NCBI GenBank assembly: GCA_965645245.1
Contig: OZ287072.1
Location: 2,728,001-2,792,000, forward strand
DNA: 64,000 nucleotides
Origin: Massalongia carnosa
Taxonomy: Eukaryota
Reading direction: 5' to 3'
The notes beneath the pieces were generated by a model, which saw only the letters and a list, made by a program, of their open reading frames with translations, searched no databases and had not been told where the DNA came from. Below are positions 11,419 to 47,682 of the stretch, piece by piece; position 1 is the stretch's first letter, and the number at the start of each line of letters is the position of its first letter. The position numbers and the translations under genes were made by a program.

Positions 11419-11519
11419 CGAGAAGACTCGGGACAGTCCCCCCCCACCGTCCCCCTAGCGAAAATCATTCCAAATTAGGACTAGCTACAAGCCACCTCCC
11501 CATACTAAATTATTAGGTG
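11419..11519 (+). mobile_element. Isolated 5' TIR of a third MULE copy
   Basis: CGAGAAGACTCGGGACAGTCCCC...CATACTAAATTATTAGGTG matches the 5'-type end at 23489-23589. Confidence 0.85.
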
Positions 11520-11622
11520 AGATGGTTCTATGTCACGTGAGGCCCCTGAGTCAAAGTAAATTAAGAATCACCCTCTGAAAATTCTTTCATCATTCACTTC
11601 TTCTCACTCGGCCTCATCCATC

Positions 11623-14600
11623 TATCAAGCTGTATGGGCTAATGTGGAATATGGGTGAAAAGGAGTGGTGTGTATTGATCTATGGGAGGTCTAGGCTAGC
11701 TAACTGAGGGATATCTCATAGGGGTTCGTGGGTCATGTGACCCATGGCGGGTCATGTGACCCCTAATCGCCTGACACACCCCCCCAGCTTTGACCAAAGC
11801 TGCCATGACCGAAAAACCTATATTAGGTGAAAATTTCCCATGTTTTACCTTGATTTCTAGTGATTTTGGCCGATTCAATTTGTGGCCGTATTTCCCTTCT
11901 TCTGATTGGCCAATTTCTTCTGATTGTTGACCAGGTCCATGGCATTGACTAGCCCTAATAGCTTGACGAAATGTTGATGCTTTTGAGGAGGTAGGATCTT
12001 GGTTAAACCATCTGCGACAATCTGATTGGTCGGCACATAGTCAACACATAATTCCCCCCTTTGCACAGATTGCCTAAGCCAGCATTGGGCGACGTCTATA
12101 TGCCTCAATTTAGTGTCAGTTTTTCCCATTTCGGAGGTTAAAATGCGAATTGTCTGTAGGTTATCGTTATAGATAACTATATCTTGATCCGGGTTAAATT
12201 GTAGCTTTTCAAATAGATGTATCCACCATATGAGCTCTTTACCCGCATGAAGCATAGACAATAACTCGGCCTCAGTGGTTGACGTGGTCACGGTCAGTTG
12301 CTTCCTAGCGACCCAGTCAATCATCACACCAAATAGCTTGAATGTATAGCCCTCGGAGCTTTTCCTATCTGGGTTATTTGCATAGGATGCATCAGCCGTT
12401 GCCTCAAAAACCTGCTTATTAGCCGGAACCGGTCCATGATTTGCTATAGTAGTGATTTCACCGCCCCCTTTGGCCGAGTACTGGATTCCCAGATATTTCG
12501 TCCCATATAGATAACGTAGGCAATGGTCTGCAGCCCTCATATGAATAGGTCCCGGGTTGGTCAGATATTCAGCTAATTTTGAAGCTGATTTTGCTATATC
12601 TGGCCGAGTCATAATAGCTGGGTAGCATATTGATCCAACTTTCTTCCTATATAGATGCATTCTGGCCGGATCCACCTCCCCCTCATATGGCGCCAGTTCT
12701 TCATTGAATATGGGCGTTAGAGGTGTTTTAGCCTCCGACTTTTCATCTATGTCATACTCCTTGGCTAATTTGTTCATATAGGAGTCCTGAATCAAGTGGA
12801 TCGTCTTTTCTTCTATGTTATGAATGACCCGTACGCCTAGAAAATAGGTTAATGGACCCATATCCCGTATTTCGATCATCTTCATGAAACGTTGCACATA
12901 TTCCTCGACTTCGGCTTCTTTTTCGGGCCGATACGCCATTACTATGTCGTCCACATAGAAGAATAGTATGATTCCCTCCGTATAGAATAGGCATGGTTCG
13001 CCTGGCACCTGTTTTAAACCTAGTTCTATGCATTTGCCTATTAGCATTCGTAGCCATAGAAGGGGTGATTTTCTTTGACCATATAGCGCTTTTTTCACTT
13101 TTAGCACCTTCTTTCTAAGCTTAAAACCATCAGGCAAAAAGCAGTAAATAGGCTCGTCATTGTGAGCGTTTAGAAAGGCGTTAATAGCGTCCAACTGCCT
13201 CGTTTTCAGCCCGAATGCAGCAACTAATGCCATTAATGCCCTAAACACCTTGAAGGCTAATGTGGCTGCATAAACATCTTGAGCATTATATTGCTGTAGG
13301 TCACCTCTAACCACTAGACGTGCTTTGAACTTTGCCAAATAGCCGTCCGAATCAGTCTTATAGGTGAAAACCCATTTGAGGGGCAATATTGGCTGTATAG
13401 CCTCATCTTGATCAACTATTTCCCATGTTTCTTTCTGGAAAAGTGCCTCCCATTCAACGTTAGCTGCTTTCATGAACTCATCTGCATAGGGATGCCTTAG
13501 CAGAGCTCGCCAATGAGATGGGGGGTCGGGCAAATCATCAGTTCGGAGCTGATTAGTCATTCTCGCCGTCCCCGCCGTAAACGCTGTATGAAATTGAGGG
13601 AATTTCGACATTTCTTCTGCTGACCAAGCTCCATTTGCACCGTATCTAGGGTTTGGTTTCCTAGTACGTTTTCCCTCTATAACGTTTGCCTCATTTATCC
13701 TATCGCTCCTTTTTCCTGATGATTGCTCTATTTCCGTCACATTGAGGGGCGTTCGGCCCGTTTGCGGGAGTTGTGGAGGGTCAATTGTTGATGCCCTCAC
13801 CTTTTTGGCCCTTCTTTTATCTATGGAGACATTAGGGCTGATATCTGGTTCAGGTGTTTCTATTGGCGTTTTTAGTTGCATGGGCGTTGATGGGGGAGTT
13901 ATTTTCTCCTGTATTTCGTCCTGACTAGGTGAGTTATCTTCTATGGTCAATTGCTCTATACGCTTATTGACTGATAAGTCTAGCTATTCTTCTTCCTTAC
14001 TATCTATCTCCTGAAATGCGGGGCGAGGTTCAACTACATGAAACTCTATAAAGCTCGCTTTTTCAGTCTCCTTTAGCAATAGCTCCTTATTCGACGTATA
14101 GGCGCTATAAAGTTCATCTTCGTTGAATATGACGTCTCTATAACCGCTGACATCTCCCTTTTCTGGATTCCATATCCTGAAGATATTGGTTGAATCATAG
14201 CCAACCAAATAGCCAACAAATGCCCTAGGTTTCAACTTATTGCTTTTGGGAGGAGCATCGGCCCCTTTTAGCAATGGATACGCCTTGCAAGCAAACACTT
14301 TTAGATGAGCCAGCTCGTATCTGACTGATTGACCCGGATTGGTCAGTTTCTGCAATTTGACCAATGGGGAGTCCCATTCCAGAGCTTTATTAGGGGTTCG
14401 ATTCATCAGATGGGCTGCAGCTAAATAGCACTCCGGATACAGGTCTTCTGGCATTTTTGCATATTCCCTGATGCATCGAGCTTTTTCAGTTAATAGGGCT
14501 CCGAAACGCTCCGAAACGCCATTTTGCTCAGGGGTATTCTTTGCTGACCATGACCATTCTATGCCTTGCTGACTGATCCATGCTTCTAGGGCTTTTCCTA

Positions 14601-16914
14601 TTGATGTTTCTTGCCCCGTGCGAATCGTGGTTACCATTGAATTAATGGAAATGCCAGCTCTATCGCATTGATTGATCAAGCTTTTGAAGATGGGCAATAG
14701 GGTCTTTTCCTTATGATCATTCAATGGATAAACCCATACATATGAGGTAAATTCGTCCCTAAAATGAGCTATACAGCTCGTTCCATCGAACCCCTTATCA
14801 TTGATTGTTAGGTCAAAATGAAGCACCTGATATGGCTTGATGGCACGCCCTGACGGAGCTTTATTGATGACTCTATGCATTTTGGAGACTGCACACGTTT
14901 CGCATTGAATGGTCCTAGGTGCGTTTTCACCCCCTACGCCTTTTGAAACTGTCACCTCATCGATCTTCTTTAGCTGGTCAATCACCTCTGGCCGGCAATG
15001 ACCGAGGCGAAGATGCCATTTCCATGGAGTTGCTTTTGACGTATCGCGTGGCTGCACTGAGTTAGCAAACCCTATATCTATGGATTCAGGGTTATATTCT
15101 ATGATTGAGAGCCCATAGTGCTCCTTTATTTCACATATTTGTTGCCCTGTCTCCTTAACTATAAGGGTATCAGTGAACATATCCCAGAAAAAGCCTCGTT
15201 TTTTCAACTTATTGGCCGAAACCAACGTCACTGATGAATCAGGAATATAAGCTGTTCCTTCGAATAATAGCTTCCTTTTCTGGCCATTCAATAGGCCATT
15301 TACCCTCATTGTGCCATGACCATGGATTTTCATCTCCCCGTCGGGGGTGTCCACCCACATGTCTGACGAAGTTGGGGTTATCTCTCCTATAAACCGTGAT
15401 TTATCATAGGTCAGAGGGTTATCGCATCCAGAGTCAAAGATGACGCTTTTATGCAAGGGGTTATTTGCCCTAGATGTAACGTTCGCAAACGAGAAGGATT
15501 GACTAGGCAATTCAATGTGATTGACCTGATTATGTTGATCATTCTCTGCTTTTTGGGAGCTCTTTTTGACTGACTCCTCAGTTATTCCATCAAGTATGTT
15601 GGTGTCGGTGACCTTCTTAATGGCCATGAAAAACCGAATGTTTGACTGAATTTTCTGACGTAAATCATTGCGTACGGTTTTATCTTCCTTCCATGCAGGG
15701 GGGCGAGCTGATTTGACGATATATGGGCATAGCCTGAACAGGTGTATTTTCCCACATACGCACTTTCTATCCTTGAATCTGGCCTCTTTTGATTGGCCAT
15801 TCCATTGACTTGATTGGCTAGGCCCCGGACCTTTATTTTCGTCTTGCATTTGCCCCTGCAGCGAGGCTGCATTAGCTTGATTTCTAGACGTTGATTGTGC
15901 CTCATTCAGGAATGATTCCACGGCTAAACGATATTCCCTGGTTGTCTCGTAAAATTCAACCGTCGTCTTAGCAGCCCTATGCTGCATTACCCAGTTTTCA
16001 CAGAAATTGGGCGCCCATTTCTTCCCTGATTGGAGAAATTCATTGATGAATATGGTCTCGGAGCCAAATAGGCCCGTTACATTGAGCTCTACAATTTGTC
16101 CCTTGATATTCTCCCAATCAGCTACCCATGCCTCTATTTTACCTTTAATGGGCGGGGTTTTTAGGGCTAGAAATTGCTCATGCAATTGCTCTATGACTTG
16201 GTCATCTGACCGCTTATATCTTGCAGCCAGAATTTTCACTATTTCCCTAACCGATGAAGCCATCTTATTGGGGGGGATGTATGCTCGTGCGGAGCTCTTT
16301 AGTGCATTGTCCACTATTCTGAGTCCTTGGGCGACCTTCTCCACCTGTTTTTCCTTCATCTTATAGGCTGATATCTCCATTTTATAGTCCTCCTTTTGCT
16401 CAGCCGATAAATCGCCGTATTTCTCAGCCGATTTCGTGGCTATTACAACTCCACCTTCTATAATGGGGTAAGCAATTCTACCTGCTGGCTGTGCTTGAAT
16501 AGGGACTTGCTTGATATTGTGAAACTTCCGGATATTCTCCCTCTTCGGGCTCCGGGTTTGAACCATTGGGGTCCACATATTGCCATACCTTCGCTTTCTT
16601 GGATATTCCTTGTAATTCCCTAATCCATAGATGATAATTCTTGGGAGTTAGGGCGATCATCATTGCTTTGTTGGTCTCCTCCATTTTGATCGTTTTGTTG
16701 GATCGTTTTGGGAAGAGGGTTTTATTCAACTAGATCAATGAGTAGGAATTGAAGCTTCTATGCTCACCGGGCTCATAACTATCAAGCTGTATGGGCTAAT
16801 GTGGAATATGGGTGAAAAGGAGTGGTGTGTATTGATCTATGGGAGGTCTAGGCTAGCTAACTGAGGGATATCTCATAGGGGTTCGTGGGTCATGTGACCC
16901 CTAATCGCCTGACA
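11623..16914 (-). mobile_element. Ty1/Copia element 1, full length
   Basis: LTRs 16780-16914 and 11623-11776 (TG..TA on minus); TSD CCATC; PBS GTTATGAGCCCGG; G-rich PPT at 11777-11787. Confidence 0.95.
11875..16684 (-). CDS. Copia gag-PR-IN-RT-RH polyprotein (4-bp frameshift near 16510, in-frame TAG at 13984-13986)
   Basis: CVCGKIH..C knuckle, FDSGC protease, WHLRLGH..CETC, PEQNGVSER, YVDD RT, ADASYA/ADGLTK RNase H. Confidence 0.92.
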
Positions 16915-17042
16915 CCATCTCACTGACTCGTCGTCGACCCCACGTTTTCTCGGTGCCCCTACCTCGCTGTCAGTGCTTGCTGCTTTTCCAATCTCACTGA
17001 CTCGTCGTCGACCTCACGTTGTCTCGGTGCCCCTACCTCCCA

Positions 17043-18055
17043 ATGACGAACACCCGTTCCCAAAGCACCTTGATGGACGACATAGTCCCCGACCCCCAGG
17101 AGATTGTCGGATTGACGCAGGCCCAATCCAATCAAATCTTCGCCCTACAAAAGAAGAAAGCCGAGGCGGAAGCGAAGGCGGCCGAGGCTGAGGCTAGAAT
17201 TGCCGAGTCCAAGGCATTGGTCGCCGAGAAGGAGGTGGAAAAAATGCAGCTAGAAATCGACTGCATGCGCCGAGAATCTGACGCCCGAATAGCGGCCGTC
17301 ATTCCTGCTGGCAAGCCGAGTCGTGTCGTCGGCGATGACGACGAGGACCTAGGTGAGATCCTCTCGAAGTAAGAAGCATAGCACCCCGTTTCGCGGGCCT
17401 ACCACAGGACGAGATCATCAAGATCTTTTCAAATAAATTCAAAGCCATCAACCTCTCCCGCCTCCGACACATGCACGGCATGCAATACGAGTCATACAAG
17501 GATCAAGACCGCATCGGCATCGAAGACGGCGCCTTGAGGTTGAGAAAGGCATCCGGGACCTACAAAGATTTCGGAAAGACAGTTCATGACGTCTGGACCG
17601 AGAGCTTCATCAACTACACCTCGATCATGGTCAGTCTTTTCGGGAAATCGAGTCAACAGCTTCACGCCACCATGTCGGCATTCCACGGAAAAATCCTCAT
17701 GCTGGCCAAGGTGTACGAGTGGCAGGAAGCAGTCCTCCCCCTCGCCATCGAAACCCACACCCACATCATCGCGTCTCAGCCATCCGACGCATCCCAATGG
17801 AAAATACCCGACGAATTCCAAGCTCGATTCTGCACCCCCCTCACAGTCCTACGCCGTCGCCGCTCACGATCCCCGCCGTCCCGACGACCGACCCCGAGAG
17901 GAGACAGGGCCGAGAGGGCCGAGAAGGCAGCGGGGGAAATCTGCGACAAGTACAACAGCGGCACCTGCACCTGGCCGTCGTGCTACCGACAGCACAAATG
18001 CAAATCGTGCGGCGCGTCTGGGCATGGCCAGAAGACATGCCCAACGAAGAAATAG
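17043..18055 (+). CDS. YR element 1 gag-like ORF (frameshift near 17362)
   Basis: Coiled-coil N-terminus, YEWQEAV, C-terminal CDKYN..C..C..HKCKSCG..H..C zinc fingers. Confidence 0.8.
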
Positions 18056-18100
18056 GGGGTTGGTGCAGGAGGCAGTAGAATAGCTTCAATAGCTGAATTC

Positions 18101-19804
18101 ATGACGTCCCATCCCTGCTTACCTGCACCAATCAGACCAAATACAATCCCTTCGTTTCAACTCGTAGACGCATCTCGTCAGCGTTTGAAAGACAGCCCAT
18201 CTCCCCTCGTACCGTCCGCATGGGCAACCCTACTTCAAGAGTATCCGGGCCCCCTCCGAGTCCATCTGCCCATGATCCTTCGTTTCGGAGTACAAATCGG
18301 ATACGAAGGCCCCACAGACATCCTTCGGATCGAACAAAATCTGACATCAGCGAATGAGGACCCGGAAACGATCGAGAATAAGCTTCAAGAGGACCTCAGG
18401 AAGGGCCGAGTCAGACGAATAGCCGCCCCGAGTCAGCCATTTGTGGCCTCCCCCCTCGGCTTGGTCCCGAAACATGACGGAGGATGGCGACGCATTCATC
18501 ATCTGTCTCATCCCAATCAAACATCAGTCAACGACAACATTCCAGAAGAGGCATCCAAATTACAATACGCCAGACTCGACGACATTATTCAATTGATTCT
18601 GTCAGAGGGCAAAGGTGCTGTCATAGTGAAAAGAGACGTCAAAGACGCCTTTCGAAACGTTCCCGTCGCACCTCATCATCAATGGCTTCTGGGTTTCGGA
18701 TGGAATGACGAATTCTACACCGAGACATGCCTTTCGTTCGGACTGTCGACGGCCCCGTTCATCTTCAATCTTTTTGCGGAAGGCTTTCATTGGATTTTGG
18801 AATCCTTTCTACAATGGAGATTAAATCACTATCTAGACGACTTCGTTGCAATTTTCCCATCCGAGACATCGTCAGAACGATTGCACCAAGAAACAAAAGC
18901 CTACAACATTCTCACCGACATTCTCGGCATCCCGAGAAACGACTCAAAAGACGCCGAGGGAACGACAGCGACAGTCTTCGGACTCGAGGTCGACACCATC
19001 AACAGTCTTATTCGTCTGCCAGCGGACAAGCTGGAAAAAGCGAGAATCATCACTACAAAGGCACTAAACGAGACGACAATCAGCCTCGGCGACATGCAGT
19101 CAATAGCGGGCTTCCTAAGCTTCTGCGCACAGGCAGTCAAATTGGGCCGAGTCTTCTTACGATTATTCTGGAATTTTATAGCCTCATTTCCCTCGGGCAG
19201 TCATCGTCGGGTCAAAAGAAGAATTCCCACATGGGTCAGACAGGATCTCATCTGGTGGAACAAACTTTTAGTGGACTTCAACGGTATTGTCTTCTTCGAG
19301 ACGTCAACACGAGACACGATCAAGGTGCATACGCATGCATGCCTCACGGGTCTCGGAGGCTATTTTCAACAAGACAACGAGCTCGTGAATCAAAAAAACG
19401 CATGTAGGGCCCGAGTCCTAGTCCTCAATCAGGAAGAATCACCGAGCATAAACGTCCGAGAAGTCGAGGCTATCCTTCTAATCCTTCAGAAATGGGCGCC
19501 GACATGGCGACATCGACAGATCCTTGTCTTTACCGACAGCAACACAGCATACACAGGATTCACGAATCTAACCCTCAAGGGACCGGCCAACGCGCCTCTA
19601 CGAGAAATACTGTCCATAGCTGCAAAGTGGGACATCGTACTACGTTGTCAATGGATCAGTGGCACTTCCAATGGACTAGCAGATGCCCTGTCACGTTTTG
19701 ATGATGAAAGATTGGCTAACTTTTGCCCTCATTGGCAGAACCCATACAATTCGATGAACCTCCCTCCACCTACCTATCCTCCACACCAGGATCAGCCCTG
19801 GTAA
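18101..19804 (+). CDS. YR element 1 reverse transcriptase/RNase H
   Basis: SPLGLVPK..WRRIHHLS, DVKDAF, LSFGL, YLDDF, FTDS, NGLADALSR. Confidence 0.93.
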   Translation: MTSHPCLPAPIRPNTIPSFQLVDASRQRLKDSPSPLVPSAWATLLQEYPGPLRVHLPMILRFGVQIGYEGPTDILRIEQNLTSANEDPETIENKLQEDLRKGRVRRIAAPSQPFVASPLGLVPKHDGGWRRIHHLSHPNQTSVNDNIPEEASKLQYARLDDIIQLILSEGKGAVIVKRDVKDAFRNVPVAPHHQWLLGFGWNDEFYTETCLSFGLSTAPFIFNLFAEGFHWILESFLQWRLNHYLDDFVAIFPSETSSERLHQETKAYNILTDILGIPRNDSKDAEGTTATVFGLEVDTINSLIRLPADKLEKARIITTKALNETTISLGDMQSIAGFLSFCAQAVKLGRVFLRLFWNFIASFPSGSHRRVKRRIPTWVRQDLIWWNKLLVDFNGIVFFETSTRDTIKVHTHACLTGLGGYFQQDNELVNQKNACRARVLVLNQEESPSINVREVEAILLILQKWAPTWRHRQILVFTDSNTAYTGFTNLTLKGPANAPLREILSIAAKWDIVLRCQWISGTSNGLADALSRFDDERLANFCPHWQNPYNSMNLPPPTYPPHQDQPW

Positions 19805-20549
19805 AACGCCTCGTCTAGCACGGACACTCGGCGGACACGAGAAAAGGGTACGGGACGGCGATCGACTCATACGAGGCATTCTGCGCGACGACGGGACGCA
19901 CGTCGTGGCCTGCAACAACCGAGTCCCTCGAGGAATGGCTAGCCGGTCGACTATACGGGGGCGGCACACCCAAGCAGGGAAAGATAAAACCAGAGACGGC
20001 AGCGAGCTACCTCGCCGGCCTCAGATCATACCATGTAGACCGAGGATACGGCCTCACCCCATTCGAGGGGCCGAGACTTCAATTGATGCTGAAAGGGGGA
20101 AAAAGGATCTTTTCTCAGACAAAAAGAAGACGCCTACCCATTTCAAAAGAATTACTGACAAAAATCACCAGTATTCCCGCTCATTCGGCCGAAGACCTCA
20201 ACATCGACGCGACATTCAAAGTTGCATGGGCAGGGTTCCTCAGACTCGGGGAAATCACCTACACTGTCGCCGATCGTAAGAAGACATCTTTTCAGAGATT
20301 GAAACCTACACGAGGTGACATCTCATTCGCCGAGAACGATCAATACGTGACATTACGTCTCAAAAGAAGCAAAACAGACACAAATCACTCAGGAGTTCAG
20401 ATAGTGCTGGCAGCGACCAATGAGAGCACTTGCCCCGTGACAGCACTACGGCGTCTTTTCAGAAATGATCCTCAGCCATCTACATCCCCGCTTTCGTCTC
20501 GGCACCGCATTCACCAGAGCCTCCGTCATAGCATCCCTGAAAAAGAGAC
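19739..20549 (+). pseudogene. YR element 1 tyrosine recombinase, truncated before the HSxR motif
   Basis: LV*HGHSADTRKGY, SYLAGLRSYHVD, AGFLRLGE, LKRSKTD, CPV; TAG at 19816-19818. Confidence 0.88.
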
Positions 20550-20767
20550 TGTCAGCCAGTTTAGTGGTCAAGCAGTAAGCGATATGTAGCTCGGATACGG
20601 TAATCTATTAACCGAATCCCAACATTCTAGTAACTGAGAGAATGGGTGCAAAATCCTTTCAATGCAAGCAATCAACCTCAATTCCAAGTGTCAATTTCAA
20701 GTGTCTATCTAAAACGTAAATCATTCTCCAATCACCAAGAGCTTAGATCAATAAATCAAGCTCAATA
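20550..20767 (+). mobile_element. Solo LTR (~218 bp) with non-matching flanks
   Basis: TGTCAGCC...AATAAATCAAGCTCAATA sits exactly between truncated YR (flank GAGAC) and truncated MULE-2 (flank AATCA). Confidence 0.6.
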
Positions 20768-23365
20768 AATCATCATTCTCATTCAGAGAGAGTGGAGGAT
20801 CGTGGGTAGGCTGAGTTGCTATATATTGCAGGGCATCGTCGTCAGATACGATGATAGCATCTCCGGAATCTATACCGAATATTAGCCGCGCTACATCGAT
20901 CGATTTGCTGATATTGTGGGTTTTTTATCATCAATCATACCCTTGTCTTCACCGCCTGCCCGCAATTCATCCTCATGCCTTCTTCTCCTCCCTTCTTCAA
21001 TCGAGTCCTTACGTTTAGCACGTCGCTGCTTAGCTTCATCTGCCTCAGCTGCCTCACGGCCAGTGTAAGCCCGCCGGCGACTCCCACTCTTTTTATACAT
21101 GAGGTTGTCCTTCGGTCGGATTTCGTCGGGGAAAGTTGTAGGGATAAGTGGCCTCGCCAGCTCCTTATCCTGCCATTTTTTATTGAAAATAGCAGTGAAT
21201 TTGGTGAATTCACGAGCGTATCCCTCCCTTCTATGCACATTTTCTATTGATTTATGAAAATCAATAGATTGATGTGCGGCCGCATGCAGCAAATCAACAC
21301 CCCCGCGACGAAATCTATCCCCAGTATTATTGTCAACTGCCTTCTCGATCTCCTCCTCCGGCTCAGATTCTTGACTTTGTTGAGCATTCACCCCCTCATC
21401 CGCCTCCTCATCCTGCTCTTCTGTGGTCTTCTGTGAGCTGCTCTCCGAAACATCTCAGCGAAATTTATGGTGAGGTCGAAAACCATGCTCCACGAGACCA
21501 CAAAAGGCGGGCCATCGAAAAACCAGCGGGGATGAATGAGGGAGATAGGTATGGGGATAACATCAATGACGCAACGATACAACCAGCATCTGCACGGAAG
21601 ACCGTATCGTGGAGGCAAATCACAATCATACATACAATCCTCACCGGTTGGTTCGATTAATGCAGTCCCTTCAACTCCAAAAGAAACCTGTTGATTAAAA
21701 TCTTCGGCTAAAAGTTTAGCTGCATCCAACTCTCTAGATATGAGGTCAATAGCATGATGAGTTATTAAACCTATAAGGTCATTGAACGCACTTCTATCTA
21801 TTAGCCGGGGGTTGTTGATTCGTTGATGATTGGTTGATATTTCGTAGTCAACCTGAACCCTTTGCACTGTTTCGCATATTTTCCGCACCGAGTCCTTAAT
21901 AGGTGTATGCCTATTTGGCACATTCTTTACCAACGGATGCAAACCATCCACCCTTTGTGTGCTATGTGCACCTAAATTAGCGAACTTTCTGGTGTATGCG
22001 GAAACAAACTGACACTCCTGACGTTGATAATAGCTAGTAAAATACTCCTGGAAATAGGAGTGAGTTAGCCCTTATTAACGTTTTTTGATGGCTTCATACC
22101 TTTTCTGAAGCATGAAGCTTCAATATCAACGCGTTTCTCTTCTCATCCAGCTGTTCAACGGTAGGAGTTTTGATCCACTCCCATATCAATTCATGCAGTT
22201 CTTTCCGTACTTCTAAAGGATATGAACCCGCCCTGATCAGGCGTTTCTTGATTGCCTCCGCTGCGTGCCACGTGCATAATTGCAACACACAATCAGGGTC
22301 GGTTTCGTGTATTGATTGGGCGACTTGCCATGCAACGGTCATTGCTGCATCCGGGTTTATTTCCTTAGCCCGTTTTTTATGCATCGCTGCAGTCAATCCA
22401 GCGGCGAAGTCTCCGAGGATGACCCTAGGACCAGGACATGTATCATGAAAAAAGAGATCTTTCATACAATCAAATAGAAACGTAAAGCACTCAGCCGATT
22501 CAGAAGTTATATAACAATAGGCCGCGGGGAAAGTCTGATTTGTGTTGGTGATGCCAACCAATACCGATAGAGGTAAGTTCAACTGATTTGTATTGAACGT
22601 AGCATCCGTTTCTATCAAAAATCCACTGACGAATCGTCTAGTCAGTCGGATCTGTTCAGCGTTACAGAAAAAGAAATGTTCAACAACACGTCTTCGGGGA
22701 GTATTGTTTTCAACGAGATATTTCTCCAAAGTCCGTACATGAAACTCTTCTTCTTCTAGAAATCCAAGTGCATAGATCAACTCTTCTTCAGGTGTATGTT
22801 TGCCCTGGGATCGAGCCAGGTTGTAATAGTCCTTCTTCGAAAGGCGCAGGCCAGTCATTCCCAAAACGCGAGATGCTTGACCGTATCTAGTTGATGCATC
22901 ACGGAGACTTTTTGCTTGATCTAGGGCAGTTGCTCGATCGAGGTCTTGGCTACGATGCTCTTTGAAACCGAAGGGGTCTGTAGCCATCTCGTGATTGTGA
23001 TCAGGATTGGTGATGATTAATCTCCACGATTCGTCTTTGTTTTGCTTCAGTCTTAGTCGATATTTGCACTCGTTGAACGAGACCTTCGTGTTTTTTCGTA
23101 CGCGGTCCTTCTCCTCTAGCTTTCTAGTGTTTCTTTCTCTTTTGTGATGACGGGTGCAATCTAGTATAACGAGATGATTCTTCTTATCATTAGTCTCTGT
23201 GACCAATGCAAAGCCTTGAGTAAAGGCATAATTCTGAAGGCGGGTTTTTCCCTCCTCCCAGGAGATAAAGATTTCACTCTCACTCAGAGGAAGACGATAA
23301 GAAGACGGTAAACTCGCTATAGCCCTTTGCAAACGTGCATCCAGGGACGTTGATGTGAGGGCCAT
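20768..23365 (-). pseudogene. MULE transposase (FAR1-like N-terminus, MULE DDE domain, SWIM)
   Basis: ATG 23365; IETDATFNTN, ILGDFAAG, QLCTWH; intron 22048-22099; QRVDG here versus QRVEG in copy 1; frameshift near 21430. Confidence 0.9.
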
Positions 23366-23589
23366 AGGAAAGAAAAAGATTAGGGAGAGAAGAAGTGCGG
23401 TCTACCTATCATAGTGATAAATTTATACAGAGTGTTGGCTGCCTATACCTATAATATTATTAATAGAGACGGTGAACGAGGTATATGCACCTAATTATTT
23501 AGTATGGGGAGGTGGCTTGTAGCTAGTCCTAATTTGGAATGATTTTCGCTGGGGGGACGGTGGGGGGGGGACTGTCCCGAGTCTCCTCG
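20768..23589 (-). mobile_element. MULE copy 2, 3'-truncated
   Basis: 5' TIR ~23497-23589; outer flank reads GCAATACTA on minus. Confidence 0.92.
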
Positions 23590-23701
23590 TAGTATTGCTA
23601 TCCGCCTTATCATGACTAAGCATCCGGATTATCAGTCACCCGGTCTTCTTGGGTGAGTCATCCCAGGAGCTAGCATAGTCCTGTATTGCCGCGCTATTAC
23701 T
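23590..23701 (-). mobile_element. 5' part of the solo LTR whose 3' part is at 2603-2995
   Basis: Reverse complement of 24218-24329; outer flank GCTTT on minus (23702-23706). Confidence 0.85.
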
Positions 23702-23872
23702 AAAGCAAGAGAGGGAACCAGAAATTTTGTCAATCTTATTTTTACTATCGCTGAGTATAAGACAAAATATCAGTCATTTTTACACTATATTGATTTTAAT
23801 GTTCTCGTGGCGATCGATATTAACTAATCAGATTTTGTAGTTCAGGCTGATCGCCCAAAAATCAGACGTGAC

Positions 23873-24024
23873 TACGCCGCACAACGGGTTGGGTTTCTTT
23901 ACTGAAAACCCAACCCGTTTGTGGCGAACCCGATTATTTTTGGTGTCTGGGTTAATTTTTGAAAGAAAAACCCGGTGGCGAAAAAGCAATTTTGTGGCGA
24001 AAACACAACCCGTTACGCGGCGTA
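23873..24024. mobile_element. hAT-family MITE (152 bp)
   Basis: TACGCCGC..AACGGGTTG / CAACCCGTT..GCGGCGTA termini; degenerate 8-bp TSD GACGTGAC/GACGTTAT. Confidence 0.75.
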
Positions 24025-24982
24025 GACGTTATCGAGGGGTAGAGTGGACCTCCACCAGATGGCCATATGACAGACGTGATAACTGTACGCGAGGGTCAGT
24101 GCGACCGAACACCATTGCCGGAAGTCACATGATCGCTCCCTGTGCCGTCAGTTACATTCCTGCTCGCCCACTTCTTCTGTTCAGTTTGTCTCTTCATCTC
24201 TTCATCTAGTCAGCTAGTGTAATAGCGCGGCAATACAGGACTGCGCTAGCTCCTGGGATGACTCACCCAAGAAGACCGGGTGACTGATAATCCGGATGCT
24301 TAGTCATGATAAGGCGGATAGCAATACTAAGCCATAAGCAATCAGCCTTACCCTTTTGTTAGGCAGCAGCTGAAGCTATTCAGATAAGCCTCGATCTTAT
24401 GGGAGGCCTGGGACGCCTAGGTGACCTCAGCTGAAGGCAACAAGGCTATCTGCTAGACCTCAGCTGAAGGCAACAAGGCTATCTGCTAGACCTCAGCTGA
24501 AGGCAACAAGGCTATCTGCTAGACCTCAGCTGAAGGCAACAAGGTTATCTGCTAGACCTCAGCTGAAGGCAGCAAGGCTATCTACTTGACCTCAGCTGAA
24601 GGCAACAAGGCAGACAGGAAATCAGACAAGTAGTTAGTAAATAGGACCCCAAGGGATATATAGAAAGCTCGATTCCCATCTTCAGGGAATCAGCTTTTAG
24701 CTTTAGCACCTACCAATCTATTAGCAGTCACACTGAGCATTATGATGATGATGTATTCATACTCCGATATGACACCGGCCGTAGGCCGGCCCATGCGGGC
24801 AAAGCTATCTAAGTTATGTTACATGGAAAACCTTTCACAGGTGTAAAAACCATGTCCCTTGATACCCGTCCGATGTGACTACGTGTCGACGTCGGGCGGG
24901 AGACGCAGTGCAAAAGACGTGTGGGAACTGTAATACCTTGTGAAAAGAGAAGAAAGAAAGAAAGGTTCAACTATTGTTGATT

Positions 24983-40743: not shown

Positions 40744-41990
40744 GTTATAAGCTGGTATCTGGTTATCGGTGTCTTGTATCTTGGGTTCAGTGTCAGTGGT
40801 CGTCTCGTCTCTACGATGTTTAATTCTCGGTGTCGGTATCAATATCTGGTGTCTTCGTGTTTGTCAGGTGAATTCTTTTATATCCTTCACATAGGATAAC
40901 AGTTTGAAGTTTCATCTTTATTGTAATGTTACGGTCTACCTAGAGGCTAGTCATAGGGACGCCATGAACGAAAAGAATAAAGATGAAGAGAAAAGAAAGA
41001 CTCGAAAGGTCTGACCCGTCCCTATATGCCAACGCGTTCCCTTGCCCTCATGCAGTACGGTCGCGAAAGAGTTTTCCGCGCTATCTCGTGAATCTCGTTA
41101 TCCGACCCGTAGGTGCTCGATTAGGTTTAGCTCCTAAACGCGAAAGGTGGAATCGTGACAGACTTTATCATTTAAATTTATCAAGAAGTAATAATTTCAA
41201 ATTTATCTAATCTCGTTATTCAGTGAGTCACTGTTGAAAATATGACTTTGGCTATATCATCAGCTAGTTCGTGTCAATCTCGTTATATTGCTACTAAGTA
41301 TGTTTGGGCTATTGCTCACAGCCCCCGGCCTCGAGAGGGGGACTCGATAAGGGCCTTGCTGTCTACTAATGTAAGACCCTCTCGCAGGCCTTGGGCTGTG
41401 AACAGACTCCCTCTATCTAAGCGACAGAAGAACTGGAGTGGGTGGGTGGGAAAGAAAACGTTGCAAACAGTGCTATCAAAATGCTATGCTTTTTGATTGT
41501 CTTGAGATGTGAGATGATGAGGGATACCGTCTGGGACCTCCTCTTTATATATCTTCTTCCTATTCTCCTTGTCCTACTCTACCATCCCAGTATGCCCCAT
41601 CAACGCGGCCCATAGCAAGGCATACACAAATCCGAAACCTAACTGTCGTCCGAAGGATCGATGCGGTGCTAAGATCTCTATGCCGTGCTGAGACATCCTT
41701 ATGGTGCTGAGACATCTATGCCGTCCGAGAGATCCATGCGGTGCCGAAATCAAAGCGGGAGCTGTCTCGATTAACGACGCACTAGCTCTCAGCATAGCCG
41801 AACTAGCTAGTTCGTGTCAATCTCGTTATATTGCTACTAAGTATGTTTGGGCTATTGCTCACAGCCCCCGGCCTCGAGAGGGGGACTCGATAAGGGCCTT
41901 GCTGTCTACTAATGTAAGACCCTCTCGCAGGCCTTGGGCTGTGAACAGACTCCCAATCCCCAACATGGAACGACCCGCTTGCGGTGTTGT

Positions 41991-43046
41991 TCAGGACCTA
42001 GTGACTGGATTGTGAGGTTCCGTGGGTAATGTTTGAAGGCGTTTTGAGGCGTTAAGAAGGTAAGTGGGGTGGGTTTGTATGTAAAGCTTGTATGCGTCTG
42101 ACTTCCATCTTCCTAGCATCTGAATCTCGTCTTCGGTGAGTCCTGCCCGTCGCGCTGTTGTTGCCGCACCTCTTCTGAACGAGTGGCCAGAGAAATTTCC
42201 TATATAGCCCAAGTTCCTTAAGGTGGATTTCATCGCTGTTGTAATGTAGTCTCGAGTGAAGGACTGACCGTTTTTAAAGAGTGGTGCGGCCGGAGAACTT
42301 GGGAATCGCCTATATAAATTTGTAAGAGAAGCTAGTGCACAAGCAACATCGTTGGTAGCCGCAATTGTCAGTGTTATGCCTCGGCGAAAGGGATCGGTTT
42401 TGGAGACTGGTAGAGAGAGCTGTAGGTGATCTGCTTCGAACCTAATAGATTTTCTGGTGAGGTGCCATTGATCAAAGCTTGGGTCTAGTACATCTTGCGT
42501 TGTGTAAGTAAATTCTCCGGCTCGTAAGAAGCCTGCAAACGCTAAGCAGTACGCCGCATGTAAATTTGCGCCTTTCTCTTTCGTTTGATCAAGACGACTT
42601 AGCAATTTGATTAAGATCTCTCTAGTAATTGGTAACCTTTCACGTTTCTCGGCTTCACCGTTCTTTCGCTTTATGCCAGTAAGGATGCGATCTAACACCG
42701 GGTGATGAAATACGTCGAGATTACCGAGGCCCATATCTATCTGGCATGATCTTATGCCCGTCAAGTAGCTCTTAATAGTTTTTGGTTGCAGGCGTCGTTC
42801 ACCCAACGCTGCGATCCACGAAGACAGCGTCCGGATGTTGGCTGGAAATGGTGGCGCGTTGAGGTTTACCCTACAGTAAAGAACGTATCCCTTTCTTGCC
42901 GTTGTGTATAAAGATCTTGTCTTAGTGGCCAGGCCCCACCAGAGGTATCGTGCTGCGATTTCGTCTAGAGGTACCTCACTGTACCAAGATGGGGGTGGAT
43001 CGCGTCCTATATTGCTGAGGGTAGAGCCTGAAACTGAGGGATTTTG
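41991..43046 (-). CDS. Ngaro-2 tyrosine recombinase (frame opens without AUG)
   Basis: RYLWWGLA..TRSLY, AGFLRAGE, SKTD, GHSFRRGAA, LGRWKSDAY..Y; catalytic set complete. Confidence 0.93.
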   Translation of the reverse strand, partial: QNPSVSGSTLSNIGRDPPPSWYSEVPLDEIAARYLWWGLATKTRSLYTTARKGYVLYCRVNLNAPPFPANIRTLSSWIAALGERRLQPKTIKSYLTGIRSCQIDMGLGNLDVFHHPVLDRILTGIKRKNGEAEKRERLPITREILIKLLSRLDQTKEKGANLHAAYCLAFAGFLRAGEFTYTTQDVLDPSFDQWHLTRKSIRFEADHLQLSLPVSKTDPFRRGITLTIAATNDVACALASLTNLYRRFPSSPAAPLFKNGQSFTRDYITTAMKSTLRNLGYIGNFSGHSFRRGAATTARRAGLTEDEIQMLGRWKSDAYKLYIQTHPTYLLNASKRLQTLPTEPHNPVTRS

Positions 43047-44623
43047 TCAGCCAGTTTCTTCAAAAGTCCTCTAGACAAGAGATCAGCAATATAATTTTCT
43101 TTGGATGATATCCATCGCGCTTCTATCTGGATATCATGTAATGCAGCTAGCATTGTAATTGCCCGCAGGGCATGCATTGCTTGGCCTCGTATAGAGGTTT
43201 TATTCACTCCTTTCGTGACAGCGTAGCTATCACAATAGAGGATTAAATGACTACCCTTGCATATAGGTAGCCACTTTTTCATAGCTTGAAGAATTGCTGT
43301 CATTTCTTTGACGTTGATATGCTTTGCCCTAAGGCGCGTAGTAAAGCGTGTGCTAAAAGCCTGCCGGGCTGCTTGTATATTATGCAAATTTTGATCCTCG
43401 CTGAGGATAAAGCCGCCCATACCATATGAGCCGGACGCATCTGTCCATATTCTCATAGTATGTCTAGTACGGTTGAGCAGATGTATGCCATTCCATTTAG
43501 GTAGGAAATGATGCCACCATAGAAGATCAGCCCTCATGTCCTTGTTAAGATGGATTAGTTTAGAGGTTACGCTTGCCGTAGCATTGAAAAGACGGCGTAG
43601 AAAGGCTCTTCCTGGTTTTACCACTCTGGCTGCAAAGCATAAGAATCCTAGAAGAGAGTCGAGTTCCTTCCTGGGTATGGCTTTTTTATTCAAAGCTGCC
43701 GATACTAGGGTCTTTGCTTTTAGTAACTTTTCGGAAGGCAAGCGTGCTTCCATGAGCGCGGTATCGATTTCAATGCCGAGGAAATCGCAAGTCGTTCCAG
43801 TTCTGTTCTTTTCGAGCTTGATTTTCATGCCAAGATCTTTACAAATGTTGTGGAAAACTTGATCAAACTTTTCAGCATCTGGTCCGGTGCTGACTATTAT
43901 TAAAAAATCATCCAAGTAATGAATAGCGTCTTTCCAACCACAGTTGTACAATATCCAGTTGATACCCTTCGCGAACAGATCAAAAAGGAACGGCGACGTT
44001 CTCAGCCCAAAGGGTAAGTATTTATCCATCCAAAAGGAATCCTGCCACTTGAAACCTAGTAACCACCAATCGCTTTTTGCTACTGGTATGTGGCGAAAAG
44101 CGTCCGCAAAGTCTCTTTTAATAAGAATACACCCTGGCCCGCGTTGCTCAATCAACCTAATGGCTTCGTCGAAGCTGGTATATTCCAGGGAGCCCCAGTC
44201 TTCCGGTATGTGGTCGTTGACTGAGCTACTCTCCGGATACGATAGATGATGGATTCGCCGCCAACCACCGTTAGCCTTTGGTACAAGGCCTAATGGGGAA
44301 CATATAAAGCAAGAAGGAATGTTGTTGACTTTCTCCAACCGATTACTAGCTATTTGTTCTTCGAGGTCATTGGTAAGAACTTCCGGTGCCTCATTTGCAG
44401 AGGCAAGATTATCGCTAATAATGAGTTGATGTGGTCCTGTATAACCAACTTTGGCACCGTAGGTGATGATATCGATAATTGTTTGTGTGTAAGTGCGATC
44501 CGGGTGATTGGCCAAATGTTTCTCCCAGCCTTCTTTCTTCAATGGGCCCGGTGGGATCTTTGTTAGATTGTCCGTCAAGGTGTATGGAAAGGACTCCGCG
44601 ATGGATAAGAATGGGGCGGTTAG
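43007..44623 (-). CDS. Ngaro-2 RT/RNase H (in frame with gag, no N-terminal AUG)
   Basis: SPLGLVPK, DFADAF, LPFGL, YLDDF, TDAS, KE, CDS, NYIADLLSR. Confidence 0.94.
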   Translation of the reverse strand, partial: LTAPFLSIAESFPYTLTDNLTKIPPGPLKKEGWEKHLANHPDRTYTQTIIDIITYGAKVGYTGPHQLIISDNLASANEAPEVLTNDLEEQIASNRLEKVNNIPSCFICSPLGLVPKANGGWRRIHHLSYPESSSVNDHIPEDWGSLEYTSFDEAIRLIEQRGPGCILIKRDFADAFRHIPVAKSDWWLLGFKWQDSFWMDKYLPFGLRTSPFLFDLFAKGINWILYNCGWKDAIHYLDDFLIIVSTGPDAEKFDQVFHNICKDLGMKIKLEKNRTGTTCDFLGIEIDTALMEARLPSEKLLKAKTLVSAALNKKAIPRKELDSLLGFLCFAARVVKPGRAFLRRLFNATASVTSKLIHLNKDMRADLLWWHHFLPKWNGIHLLNRTRHTMRIWTDASGSYGMGGFILSEDQNLHNIQAARQAFSTRFTTRLRAKHINVKEMTAILQAMKKWLPICKGSHLILYCDSYAVTKGVNKTSIRGQAMHALRAITMLAALHDIQIEARWISSKENYIADLLSRGLLKKLADKIPQFQALPSAI

Positions 44624-45671
44624 TCATTGCCTTGATGGGAGAGGCATCGAATTTGGGTTAGAGGGTTGATTTTTTCCATTTGTACAGTCCATCGCCCGAT
44701 GTTGCTTTCCACATTTCTCACACACATGTTGGAATCTACAATATACGGGACAGTCTTTGCCATAGTTGTATTTCTTACAGATAATCTTTTCGCCTGAGGT
44801 TTTGAAAGCCGTAGAATTATCGTCCGGTTTTGCAAAGTAAGCGGACGGTTTCCGCACAAGATGCCTTTCCAAGGAATGGTCCATTTCTTTCCATCCATCC
44901 GGGTTGTCAATCCCGCGAAAGGCTCGAGATTTGTGGAAATTCAAATGAAAGATGCGAACCGAGTCCCAGGTGTAGAAGGCGTATAATGATAGAAGATGGT
45001 CCTGATAAGCCATGAAGGCTCTCATCAGGTTTATCTGGAGACCGGGGTGTGCAAAGTGTAGTAGTATCATCCAATATACCCCGAGACATCGTATCAAATG
45101 AACTATCCCTTTGATATCTTTTAAGGAGCCATCTTCTTCTCTCGTGGCGATTTCCAGACCTTCTCCGAGTTTGACGTATCTAGAGTTGGTTTGAACTCCG
45201 TCGATTTCGGTACATAGCTTCTGTATACAATGAGTTTGGTCGATGCGGTGGAAATGATGTCGGAAATAATAGGGAAGGCTGTTGAGCTGAGGCTACTGGC
45301 CCAGGGACCACGTCTCGGGCACGTGCTTGTTGGGTTTCGATATCCCGCCTAAGACTTACTCTTTCTCTTTCCTCGGCTTCCCTGCGGGACATTTCGCGTT
45401 GTGCTCTAAGTTCAATAATGTCATCAGGGGTGCGAGAACGGGTTTCCGGTATAACAGGCCCTTGTGAGGAGGAATTAAACGCTGAAGATGGAAGAGGAGA
45501 AGGTTGAGGATGGCTTTGAAGGGTTGCCGTGCTGTCTTGTGAGTCGGGTACTTCGACGTCTGGGTTGGAGTTGGCTAGATTTGCCCTAGCTCTAGTTCTA
45601 GTACGGGCTTGAGTGCTGCCTTGTGTGCGGGAGGTAGGCTTGGTGATTCTGTTGGAGATGCGGGTGGCCAT
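44624..45671 (-). CDS. Ngaro-2 gag-like ORF (frame change near 45230-45290)
   Basis: ATG 45671; YTWDSV..FH; CKKYN..C..C..HVCEKCG..H..C. Confidence 0.8.
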
Positions 45672-46801
45672 TTTTGGAGGAGAGGGATTTGAATAGAGTA
45701 AATTTAAGTGTAGTGGTTGTATAAATTTGAATTGGGTGAAAAGAAAACGTTGCAAACAGTGCTATCAAAATGCTATGCTTTTTGATTGTCTTGAGATGTG
45801 AGATGATGAGGGATACCGTCTGGGACCTCCTCTTTATATATCTTCTTCCTATTCTCCTTGTCCTACTCTACCATCCCAGTATGCCCCATCAACGCGGCCC
45901 ATAGCAAGGCATACACAAATCCGAAACCTAACTGTCGTCCGAAGGATCGATGCGGTGCTAAGATCTCTATGCCGTGCTGAGACATCCTTATGGTGCTGAG
46001 ACATCTATGCCGTCCGAGAGATCCATGCGGTGCCGAAATCAAAGCGGGAGCTGTCTCGATTAACGACGCACTAGCTCTCAGCATAGCCGAACTAGAAAAT
46101 TGGAGATTACTAACAGATCTTGATGATTAAATATTCGACTTATTGGTTACTTTAGTCTTTATTCGTCAACCTTTAGGCAGTTGCCTTTATCTATTATACG
46201 TCTTGTCGTTATATTAGTCAGTGCAACCTGCATCTCAACAAATAATCGTCACTCTGTCTTTACTTCTCGTCTCGATAAGCTTTATTATTCTCTTTACCTT
46301 GACCTTTTAACAATTCAGTCATATATTATCCACTTTATCCTATCTTTACGTCCTCTTTATCCGTCGTAGAGTAATATTGGTTGTTCAGCTGCTCTCTTTA
46401 CATGTCGCATCGTCATACAATGACTTCGTTGCAGCTTTTGTATCTTGCGTATAATATATCTATATAATGCGCAACCGTCCTTGGATTTCTTATCGAAGAT
46501 AATGTTAAGCACGTTCAGTTCTCGAAGATCAACAGTATTCTACATTATTACGTGGTAATGATTCTCATTATTCTTTGAATTGATTATTATCTATTACTTG
46601 ATGACGAGAAAACCTGCTTAGAACATAATGCCTATAGAGCCCAAATGTTAGAAGACCAACTACTACTGCGACGACATATTAAGCTCATCTGTTCTGGAAC
46701 AACAGTCACTCTTAGACGGAAGCCCTTCCTTATCCTACTAAAAAGCGCATGCGTTTAGGAAACCAATTCTCTTTAATGCTAACATAATACAATAGGGTAC
46801 G

Positions 46802-46971: not shown

Positions 46972-47682
46972 TTACGTTATAATCCCAAACGTTAAGTTAT
47001 AATCCCAAACAAAAACTAAACACCAAATCCATCGAGTCTAAAGGATTCAAGGGTACATAAATGTCTAGATATATGGGACCTGCGATGGGGGGGCGCTCTC
47101 GGTCGCAATAAAAATAGACTCGGTTGGTTATATTAACCTGACAAATTGAGTCCACTATTTGATTTGTTCATCGGGATATTGATTACGCATGCCACAGCAT
47201 CCTTCGTGTTGACGGTAGTCAAAGATAATATGGATGATCGTATCGATAGTGGACAAGAGTTGGTTTGGAAGATAGTCAAAAGATGGTATAGACGGTTGTC
47301 TGGATGGTAGTCAAAAGATATCAAGATGTATAAGCTAGTGTGGATTATGGGTGAAAAGGAGTGGTGTTTATTGATCTATAGGAGGTCTAGGCTAGCTAAC
47401 TGATGGATATCTCATAGGGATTCGTGGGTCATGTGACCCCTAATCGCCTGACACACCCCCCCAGCTTTGACCAAAGCTGCCATGACCGAAAAACCTATAA
47501 TAGTTAAAAATTTCCATGTTTTACCTTGATTTCTAGTGATTTTGGCCGATTCAATTTGTGGCCGTATTTCCCTTCTTCTGATTGGCTAATTTCTTCTGAT
47601 TATTGACCAGGTCCATGGCATTGACTAGCTCTAATAGCTTGACGAAATGTTGATGCTTTTGAGGAGGTAGGATCTTGGTTAA

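Follow-up and report, generated by a model that had tools for sequence, protein, structure and literature searches.

Contig OZ287072.1 of Massalongia carnosa (NCBI GenBank assembly GCA_965645245.1) carries, between positions 2,728,001 and 2,792,000 of the forward strand, two retrotransposon copies, elements 1 and 2, each with a gag-like gene, a gene that encodes reverse transcriptase (RT) together with RNase H (RH), and a putative tyrosine recombinase (YR) gene or its remnant. We refer to this 64,000-nt stretch as the window and count positions from its first letter; the features of both elements are collected in Table 1. Our subject is the junction of gag and RT in element 1, where an earlier sequence-only reading had noted that gag ends in a TAG, that the next 15 codons are open and in the frame of RT, and that a stem-loop follows, and had proposed that the stop codon is read through to yield a Gag-RT fusion. 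Read directly, the junction has this layout. The gag-like open reading frame (ORF) encodes a CCCH-like motif and a CX2CX4HX4C zinc knuckle, the end of which lies 4 residues upstream of the stop, and the second ORF has, besides its RT match, a match to RT_RNaseH in Pfam that falls below the cut-off (E 5e-4). Gag, linker and RT/RNase H of element 1 would together make up a predicted readthrough product of 777 residues. An exact look-up of the gag proteins of both elements in the protein collection found neither.

Table 1. Coordinates of the features of elements 1 and 2 in the window (MFE, minimum free energy)
Feature	Element	Positions	Strand	Remarks
Gag-like ORF	1	17471..18055	+	194 codons plus TAG; from the ORF list; no Pfam match
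In-frame UAG, proposed readthrough site	1	18053..18055	+	context AAG AAA UAG GGG GUU
Linker	1	18056..18100	+	15 open codons from stop to ATG, GVGAGGSRIASIAEF; in frame with ATG 18101
5' arm of stem	1	18058..18075	+	18060-18075 of the sequence-only reading plus 18058-18059 from the MFE fold; encodes V-G-A-G-G
Loop	1	18076..18114	+	39 nt; small hairpin and ATG 18101 inside; from the MFE fold
3' arm of stem	1	18115..18133	+	A18121 bulged; falls where the conserved P-C-L-P-A-P motif is encoded
RT/RNase H ORF	1	18101..19804	+	567 codons from ATG; RVT_1 E 2.7e-12
Tyrosine recombinase remnant	1	20050..20589	+	aligns to residues 5-185 of 247 of the element 2 YR, 34% identical
Gag-like ORF	2	44624..45070	-	ends CAA UGA CUA, TGA at 44626-44624
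RT/RNase H	2	43007..44623	-	in frame with its own gag; RVT_1 E 2.9e-14, RT_RNaseH E 1.4e-7
Tyrosine recombinase ORF	2	41991..42734	-	247 residues; Phage_integrase E 1.7e-4, 21.8 bits, cut-off 27.1
Repeat A1	2	45733..46095	-	364 nt, 99.5% identical to A2
3' repeat block	2	41262..41954	-	B1 41805-41954, A2 41443-41806, B2 41262-41411

A protein search with the post-stop RT of element 1 returned 312 relatives at E <= 1e-10, few of which are named (Talaromyces, Penicillium, Aspergillus). DNA of relatives was taken from 79 metagenome loci and from 6 loci on contigs filed under bacterial metagenome-assembled genomes (MAGs), numbered L001-L085; the latter six were all that a scan of genome contigs yielded, and a scan of viral contigs yielded no relative. 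Together with the two window elements, 87 loci were examined, of which 59 were assessable in that both the RT N-terminus and an upstream gag motif could be located, the other 28 having less than 500 nt upstream and no gag motif (11 loci), no match to the gag pattern (9) or no RT N-terminus (8). The gag knuckle and RT share a frame and are separated by exactly one stop in 49 of the 59 assessable loci, whose RTs are 38-57% identical to that of element 1. With an expectation of one third for a shared frame, this corresponds to a binomial p of 5e-15, computed over loci that are not independent; the 49 loci form 38 clusters at 85% identity, and a single stop, as in a readthrough site, is thus kept across diverged relatives. 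Homologs with a sense codon at this position or with a varying frame, which the sequence-only reading had named as what would speak against it, are absent in the first case (0 of 59 loci with a fused gag-RT) and a minority in the second (gag in another frame in 7 of 59), while three more loci keep the frame and contain at least two stops. Between close relatives the identity of the stop codon switches, always to another stop: L002 has TAA where L003 has TAG, and L014 has TAA where L012, L016 and L035 have TAG.

The nucleotides around the 49 stops are far from uniform. The stop codon is TGA in 28 loci, TAG in 18 and TAA in 3; the base after it is C in 33, G in 10, T in 3 and A in 3; the next codon is CAA in 13, CTA in 8, CTC in 6 and CGG in 2; and the codon before it is AAA in 19. 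Adenines upstream of a stop are known to favour readthrough in yeast. Viral readthrough signals fall into three classes, namely type I (UAG-CAA-UYA), type II (UGA-CGG or UGA-CUA) and type III (UAG-G with structure) (PMC3159437). By sequence, the contexts of the relatives match all three types: UAG-CAA-UUA is found in L007 and L028, TGA-CTA in element 2 and 7 relatives, and UGA-CGG in 2 relatives, and in element 1 the UAG is followed by G, as in type III (AAA UAG GGG), a TAG-G shared with L017, L024, L022, L081 and L004. Two other ways of decoding the stop were considered and set aside. A variant genetic code was ruled out because all three stops are used as the gag stop across the relatives and the ORFs are otherwise free of them, and selenocysteine insertion was dropped on the same ground that all three stop codons occur as the gag stop.

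The signature of protein coding continues past the stop. In the 49 loci, the linkers from the stop to the conserved RT N-terminus span 8-183 codons and are open, and the ratio of the proportions of nonsynonymous and synonymous differences (pN/pS) in the post-stop region lies between 0.43 and 0.70 for 13 of the 14 diverged pairs, with pS up to 0.78; the remaining pair has a ratio of 1.2, and three further pairs without any synonymous difference stand outside the 14. The last linker residues of element 1 belong to a motif, ..F[ILM]xx[HY]xCxPAPxRPNT, that is conserved in relatives, and the conserved RT N-terminal motif accordingly begins upstream of the ATG. Its F, encoded at 18098-18100, is common to 14 of the 29 loci whose RT identity is 45% or higher and appears in many protein N-termini as well.

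These observations bear on the alternative that RT is made alone, by initiation at AUG 18101 (through leaky scanning, reinitiation or internal entry) or from a transcript of its own started at a promoter in the junction, with the shared frame being irrelevant. The in-frame ATG does exist, 15 codons past the element 1 stop, and gene callers start the 567-residue database proteins there; moreover, the corresponding junction of the Candida element Tca2 holds a promoter (PMC2194720). Yet the ATG is not conserved, since relatives have I, L or T in place of Met 18101 and 23 of the 49 loci (5 of these 23 judged by eye) have their first in-frame ATG beyond the RPNT motif or none within 300 codons. L017, structurally the closest relative, is among them, with its first Met 192 codons after the stop, and the RT of element 2 has no ATG for 198 codons past its stop. 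Initiation of RT by itself would neither maintain a common frame for the two genes in 49 of 59 loci nor hold long ATG-less linkers open under purifying selection. The base at position -3 of ATG 18101 is a T, which makes for a weak initiation context. We therefore regard separate production of RT as improbable. The sequence-only reading had also placed the RT AUG inside the stem's loop, where it does lie, but this location is incidental as judged from the alignment, in which the AUG gives way to I, L or T codons and close to half of the loci do without it.

Another possibility is that the stop is bypassed in some other manner, by splicing or by a non-canonical bypass dependent on distant sequences, of the kind proposed for Tca2, for which flanking sequence alone was insufficient (PMC2194720). 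Splicing could be read from two gene models, P0098 and P0103 (from Talaromyces and Penicillium), in which part of gag is joined to RT with about 100 junction residues skipped; in these models the prediction software has probably introduced a spurious intron to get around the stop. Element 1 has no GT between the zinc knuckle and the TAG, so that a local intron cannot remove the stop, and local splicing was rejected for this reason. No joints appear in the run contigs compared, from runs not recorded as RNA, and leaky contexts are enriched directly after the stop, which readthrough predicts and splicing does not. A bypass of this kind thus appears very unlikely to us.

A further question is whether the TAG might be a disabling mutation in a dead copy, its open downstream frame a mere leftover. 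Repeat-induced point mutation in fungi typically produces C-to-T and G-to-A changes, and a TAG could arise by changes of this type from CAG or TGG. Element 1 is, moreover, incomplete at its 3' end: its recombinase has no Pfam match and is interrupted by stops in the catalytic C-terminal part (window 20050-20766), and a self-comparison of 16800-21000 uncovered no terminal repeats, only a 49-nt tandem repeat. Against this stand the presence in L017 and L024 (46-48% RT identity) of a TAG-G followed by identical bases, the stop in the contigs of all four sequencing runs compared, at least four cluster members of 567 residues that start behind the stop, and the 38 independent clusters that have one stop at the same place. 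We consider a disabling mutation in a dead copy, which the comparative data contradict, scarcely credible.

The sequence of element 1 is found well beyond this copy. Its RT falls in a 90%-identity cluster of 59 proteins; of the 15 listed, no fewer than 4 are 567 residues long, and one identical RT protein of the cluster is encoded on 8 contigs, which together indicate a multi-copy family with the same ORF start. The stretch is present in nine sequencing runs under seven organism labels, with no RNA run among those listed. In the four runs compared (four organism labels), the contigs are identical to the window over 18018-18228 and hold the TAG and the stem in every case; over 17800-18400 they show 7 differences, three of them synonymous, three amino-acid replacements and one, confined to a single contig, a stop, and this divergence of about 1% carries no information on covariation. 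The stop is a G>T change at 18356 in one of the two contigs of run X8, which turns an RT codon from GAG to TAG, so at least one copy there has a broken RT. With gag and RT intact and near-identical across labels, the family may survive non-autonomously, or the damage may be confined to the copy in the window. Separately, the 49-nt tandem unit lies at 16917-17039, in the leader upstream of the element 1 gag, with a spacing of 74 nt and 96% identity between its copies.

Several observations count against readthrough as the general mode of expression. The incomplete state of element 1, with its recombinase remnant and missing terminal repeats, is one of them. Another is the set of 10 loci among 59 that do not fit, 9 of which have an intact-looking RT (6 of 7 with gag in another frame, 3 of 3 with multiple stops); the single-stop layout is therefore dominant rather than universal, and a minority of lineages may use another arrangement. 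Two database proteins, P0085 and P0096, run continuously from gag to RT with a W precisely at the expected stop (..KKRSWQS.., ..GQKSWRLG..); the W could come from a gene caller rendering TGA as W, or from mutation of the stop to TGG. Finally, the gag-UGA-pol junction of Tca2, with its predicted pseudoknot, gave no readthrough in a Saccharomyces cerevisiae reporter, and a minor promoter was found instead (PMC2194720).

The misfits themselves are heterogeneous. By eye, RT of L018 is open in the -1 frame and overlaps gag by 193 nt (1367-1559), gag and RT of L060 overlap by 386 nt (526-911), and L069 shares its gag end with its relative L070 and changes frame only later, so that it looks like an indel derivative of the latter. 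L039/L043 and L084 are further relatives with an intact RT and gag in another frame. Such cases could reflect frameshifting in some lineages, or else indels and assembly errors. When the 9 loci unmatched by the gag pattern (with at least 500 nt upstream) were inspected by eye, they included L018, L019 and L049 with gag in another frame and L015 with several stops, as well as the decayed copies L056, L065 and L067, which have 8-20 stops in RT. The contigs of L080-L085, P0057 and P0079 lie in public bacterial MAGs (labelled Kribbellaceae, Solirubrobacteraceae, Bacteroidetes, Chloroflexi and Terrimicrobiaceae); eukaryote-type retrotransposons in such bins are probably due to fungal contamination.

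With these points weighed, the comparison supports the initial proposal of a Gag-RT fusion, through the single in-frame stop in 49 of 59 loci, the leaky-type contexts and the open linkers, and we consider it quite likely that programmed readthrough of the gag stop occurs in element 1 and its kin. Readthrough and its rate being predictions, the process would run as follows. Most ribosomes would stop at UAG 18053-55, giving the 194-residue Gag; a minority would decode the UAG with a near-cognate tRNA and traverse the 15-codon linker into RT/RNase H, producing the 777-residue Gag-RT/RH fusion. The outcome would be a high ratio of Gag to RT, with RT tethered to Gag. The putative signal in element 1 would be one of stop-G plus 3' structure, that is, an A-rich codon, the stop, a G and, 2-4 nt on, an interrupted stem of 18 bp with its 3' arm placed on the conserved PCxPAP codons.

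For the clade at large, the explanation that we judge likely, with slightly less assurance, is that element 1 comes from a large fungal clade of Ngaro-like tyrosine-recombinase retrotransposons whose members would make RT/RNase H only as a C-terminal extension of Gag, via readthrough of a single leaky stop. Because no protease is encoded, the Gag-RT/RH fusion probably acts uncleaved. We know of no retroelement class for which an uncleaved Gag-RT/RH has been described as the working replication enzyme. A wider version of the model holds that the whole clade obtains RT by readthrough only, that lineages have switched time and again between signals of the stop-CAA, UGA-CUA/CGG and stop-G types, the last with a long-range stem peculiar to the lineage and set on the conserved PCxPAP codons, and that the uncleaved fusion is the working enzyme; for this combination we see the chances as evenly split.

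We separately explored the structure that follows the element 1 stop. The pairing of 18060-18075 with 18115-18131 put forward by the sequence-only reading holds in every detail, with 16 bp, one G-U pair, a bulged A18121 and the ATG in the loop. The MFE fold of 18050-18140 includes this helix and adds two pairs (18058-59 with 18132-33), which sets the spacer between stop and stem at 2-4 nt. At -34.5 kcal/mol compared with -22.6 on average over 200 dinucleotide shuffles, one of which was as stable (z -3.65), the stem exceeds what base composition would give; a 130-nt fold beginning at the stop has a z of -3.16. With 12 + 6 bp and a 39-nt loop, the structure has the geometry of an extended 3' stem-loop (at least 10 bp, no more than about 10 nt from the stop, with a long loop). 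It is a long-range stem-loop with a spacer of 2-4 nt rather than a compact pseudoknot placed some 8 nt past the stop, although pseudoknot pairing of the loop was not searched.

The nearest relatives with DNA, L017 and L024 (48% and 46% RT identity), have the TAG-G and the same outer helix as element 1. This helix, in which GGUG(C/U)AGG pairs with CCUGCACC, is invariant in the three sequences, while the inner helices differ yet pair: AGGCAG with CUGCUU in element 1, ACACA with UGUGU in L024 and GAUAC with GUGUU in L017. Compared with L024, element 1 shows two compensatory pairs (G-C to A-U and G-C to C-G) when the arms are anchored by hand, the only way in which they are seen. Element 1 and L017 agree at four 4-fold-degenerate third positions of the outer 5' arm, in a linker with a pS of 0.57.

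Structure after the stop sets the stop-G lineages apart as a group. In all seven stop-G clusters (element 1, L004, L005, L017, L022, L024 and L030), the first 30 nt form 18-26 long-range pairs, with the helix beginning 1-5 nt downstream of the stop, and the mean fold z is -2.5, compared with -0.25 for the 27 stop-C clusters. Tested against all 31 other clusters, the seven differ both in z (Mann-Whitney p 7e-4) and in the number of long-range pairs (p 2e-5). In a swap test, the cognate downstream partner ranked 1-4 of 38 in 6 of the 7 clusters. When the sequences were recoded synonymously, L017 (8 of 200 recodings folding as well), L005 (4 of 200) and L004 (0 of 200) stood out, and the Stouffer sum of all seven z values is about -4.7. 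Most stop-C relatives lack significant structure after the stop, and the post-stop region of element 2 shows nothing notable (z +1.1). Three stop-C relatives, L007 (1504-1630), L002 (1273-1310) and L008, have strong post-stop structure; in L007, UAG-CAA-UUA is accompanied by a long stem 10 nt downstream (z -4.26, with 0 of 200 synonymous recodings folding as well), and in L002 a 9-bp hairpin starts 8 nt downstream of TAA-CTG.

For element 1 taken by itself, other controls weigh against a role of the stem. Of 200 synonymous recodings, 27 reach an equally stable fold (z -1.25), so that the stem is not clearly beyond what the encoded Gly-rich linker and Pro-rich motif would lead one to expect, and the control is similarly weak for L024 (34 of 200), L022 (29 of 200) and L030 (22 of 200). 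The spacer of 2-4 nt is below the roughly 6-9 nt of studied stimulators (PMC3159437). A formal pair count on a three-sequence MAFFT alignment found 0 double changes and 8 invariant pairs; three sequences give its shuffle control no power, and the alignment misplaces the inner 5' arm of L024, which makes the inner-helix changes invisible to the count. A covariance model built from element 1, L017 and L024 found no further strong member among 86 sources, its weak matches (E 0.003-0.009) at the junctions of L004, L005, L006, L008 and L009 not keeping the pairs, and Rfam had no match to 17800-18400 at E up to 1. The expectation that the stem would be conserved with compensatory changes was thus borne out insofar as the arms recur in L017 and L024; the formal count of double changes, on three sequences, is zero, compensation being visible with hand-anchored arms only. 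Likewise, the stimulatory role first ascribed to the stem gains from the recurrence of a helix across stop-G lineages and is weaker than implied in view of the recodings that fold equally well and the missing double changes.

Readthrough might accordingly be real without the stem being its stimulator. The stem would then be a by-product of GGN (Gly) codons facing CCN (Pro) codons, or would serve packaging, dimerisation or priming, and the leakiness would come from AAA UAG G. In favour of this, besides the weak recoding result for element 1 and the zero count of double changes, the 3' arm is fixed by the conserved peptide anyway, the G-rich 5' arm of element 1 binds non-cognate regions well (mean -25.4 compared with -32.0 kcal/mol for the cognate one), and element 2 and most stop-C relatives manage without structure. 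A mere by-product is harder to reconcile with the four degenerate third positions kept identical in element 1 and L017 despite the divergence of the linker, with inner helices of different sequence that still pair in element 1, L017 and L024, with helices 1-5 nt after the stop in all seven stop-G lineages despite unrelated arm sequences, and with the combined recoding z and the cognate ranks in the swap test. We hold a by-product or another function of the stem to be a sizeable possibility that falls short of an even chance, and rate the stem as a predicted readthrough stimulator at even odds.

Gag-pol readthrough is textbook knowledge for gammaretroviruses and is accepted for some long terminal repeat (LTR) retrotransposons, and both groups offer comparisons. 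Murine leukemia virus (MuLV), a gammaretrovirus with a type III signal, resembles element 1 in having a single in-frame UAG between gag and polymerase, followed by G and purine-rich codons and by a structure close downstream; its Gag-Pol fusion is the product of a minority of translations (PMC3159437). The two differ in that the MuLV structure is a compact pseudoknot 8 nt after the stop, whereas element 1 has an interrupted 18-bp stem with a 39-nt loop and a spacer of 2-4 nt. Moreover, MuLV cleaves its fusion with its own protease, whereas element 1 encodes none and its readthrough is predicted from sequence. Similar in form are the 3' stem-loops of alphaviruses, furoviruses, tobraviruses and others, which likewise have at least 10-12 bp, a long and poorly conserved loop, a spacer of a few nucleotides and a single-base bulge (PMC3159437), a geometry found here in all seven stop-G lineages. 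The viral stems mostly follow UGA-C, with spacers of 7-9 nt and loops of about 100 nt, in contrast to the UAG-G and shorter spacer of element 1, and they raise readthrough up to 10-fold, as shown by mutation (Firth et al. 2011, PMC3159437), an effect that for the stems described here is a prediction. Leaky contexts of types I and II are present in relatives (stop-CAA in 13 of 49, UGA-CUA, UGA-CGG) and are not used by element 1.

Among fungal LTR elements, Tj1 of fission yeast, Tosmo1-3, Tcry1 and Candida Tca2 share with the YR elements described here the arrangement of gag, stop and pol in one frame, and for Tj1 and the Tosmo elements a conserved GAA-TGA-CT(A/G) context is described, with the Tj1 stop reported to be essential for transposition (PMC10085805). 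These are, however, Ty3/Gypsy or Ty1/Copia elements with a protease and a DDE integrase, unlike the present elements with their tyrosine recombinase and split direct repeats. Ngaro and DIRS elements resemble ours in the order of gag-like, RT/RH and YR genes, in having neither protease nor DDE integrase, and in the split direct repeats seen in element 2. Their ORFs are described, in the excerpts of the literature cited here, as ones that "frequently overlap" or with a frameshifted YR, and these excerpts mention no in-frame gag/RT stop or readthrough; the statement of the sequence-only reading that DIRS/Ngaro elements are usually described with separate or overlapping ORFs agrees with them. No description of readthrough in Ngaro/DIRS elements was found in the open literature, a scope that excludes the founding accounts (Goodwin and Poulter 2004; Poulter and Butler 2015), and the portion examined of a large recoding review does not mention YR retrotransposons. 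The mechanism as such is thus known, and its use in YR retrotransposons appears, within this scope, to be undescribed.

If correct, the readthrough model would show how a widespread clade of fungal transposons organises its gene expression and explain why so many of its RT ORFs have no start codon. To our knowledge, the expression of RT in YR retrotransposons has hardly been studied. The model would also correct automated annotation, in which RT is started at arbitrary internal ATGs and introns are invented around the stop. The approximately 38 diverged junctions, with all three eukaryotic signal classes on one homologous backbone, would constitute a natural comparative series suited to asking what makes fungal stops leaky and when 3' structure is needed. 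Moreover, the absence of a protease raises the question of whether a retroelement RT can be functional while fused to a capsid-like protein.

Element 2 (41262-46095, minus strand) is a complete Ngaro-like element and apparently a young one. Its B copies are 150 nt long and 100% identical, and the order A1...B1-A2-B2 is that of split direct repeats of the Ngaro kind, which element 1 does not have; both elements have RT followed by RNase H in one ORF, as in Ngaro. A Pfam search of ORF2 of both elements returned only RT and RNase H families, and no protease, DDE integrase or DIRS1-type methyltransferase. The Ngaro-like assignment is one by gene order, domains and the repeats of element 2, rather than by a tree with reference Ngaro/DIRS elements. 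Compared with element 1, the RT of element 2 is 38% and its gag 26% identical. Element 2 shares the post-stop peptide SI[AS]ESFPY with the metagenome locus L075.

The window as a whole is a nest of transposons. Two MULE-type DNA transposon copies, at 1-2959 and 20767-24743, lie in opposite orientation and share blocks that are 97-100% identical; the transposase ORF of the second (22094-23365, minus strand) has MULE, FAR1 and AFT domains. Element 1 is flanked by a Copia LTR on its left and by this second MULE copy, which abuts its 3' end, on its right. Ty1/Copia-type elements are found at 11438-16933, 47318-51318 and 58686-61247, with a Copia pol ORF at 13984-16578 (minus strand) that has rve, gag_pre-integrs and SH3_retrovirus domains, and LTR-like repeats occur at four places in the window.

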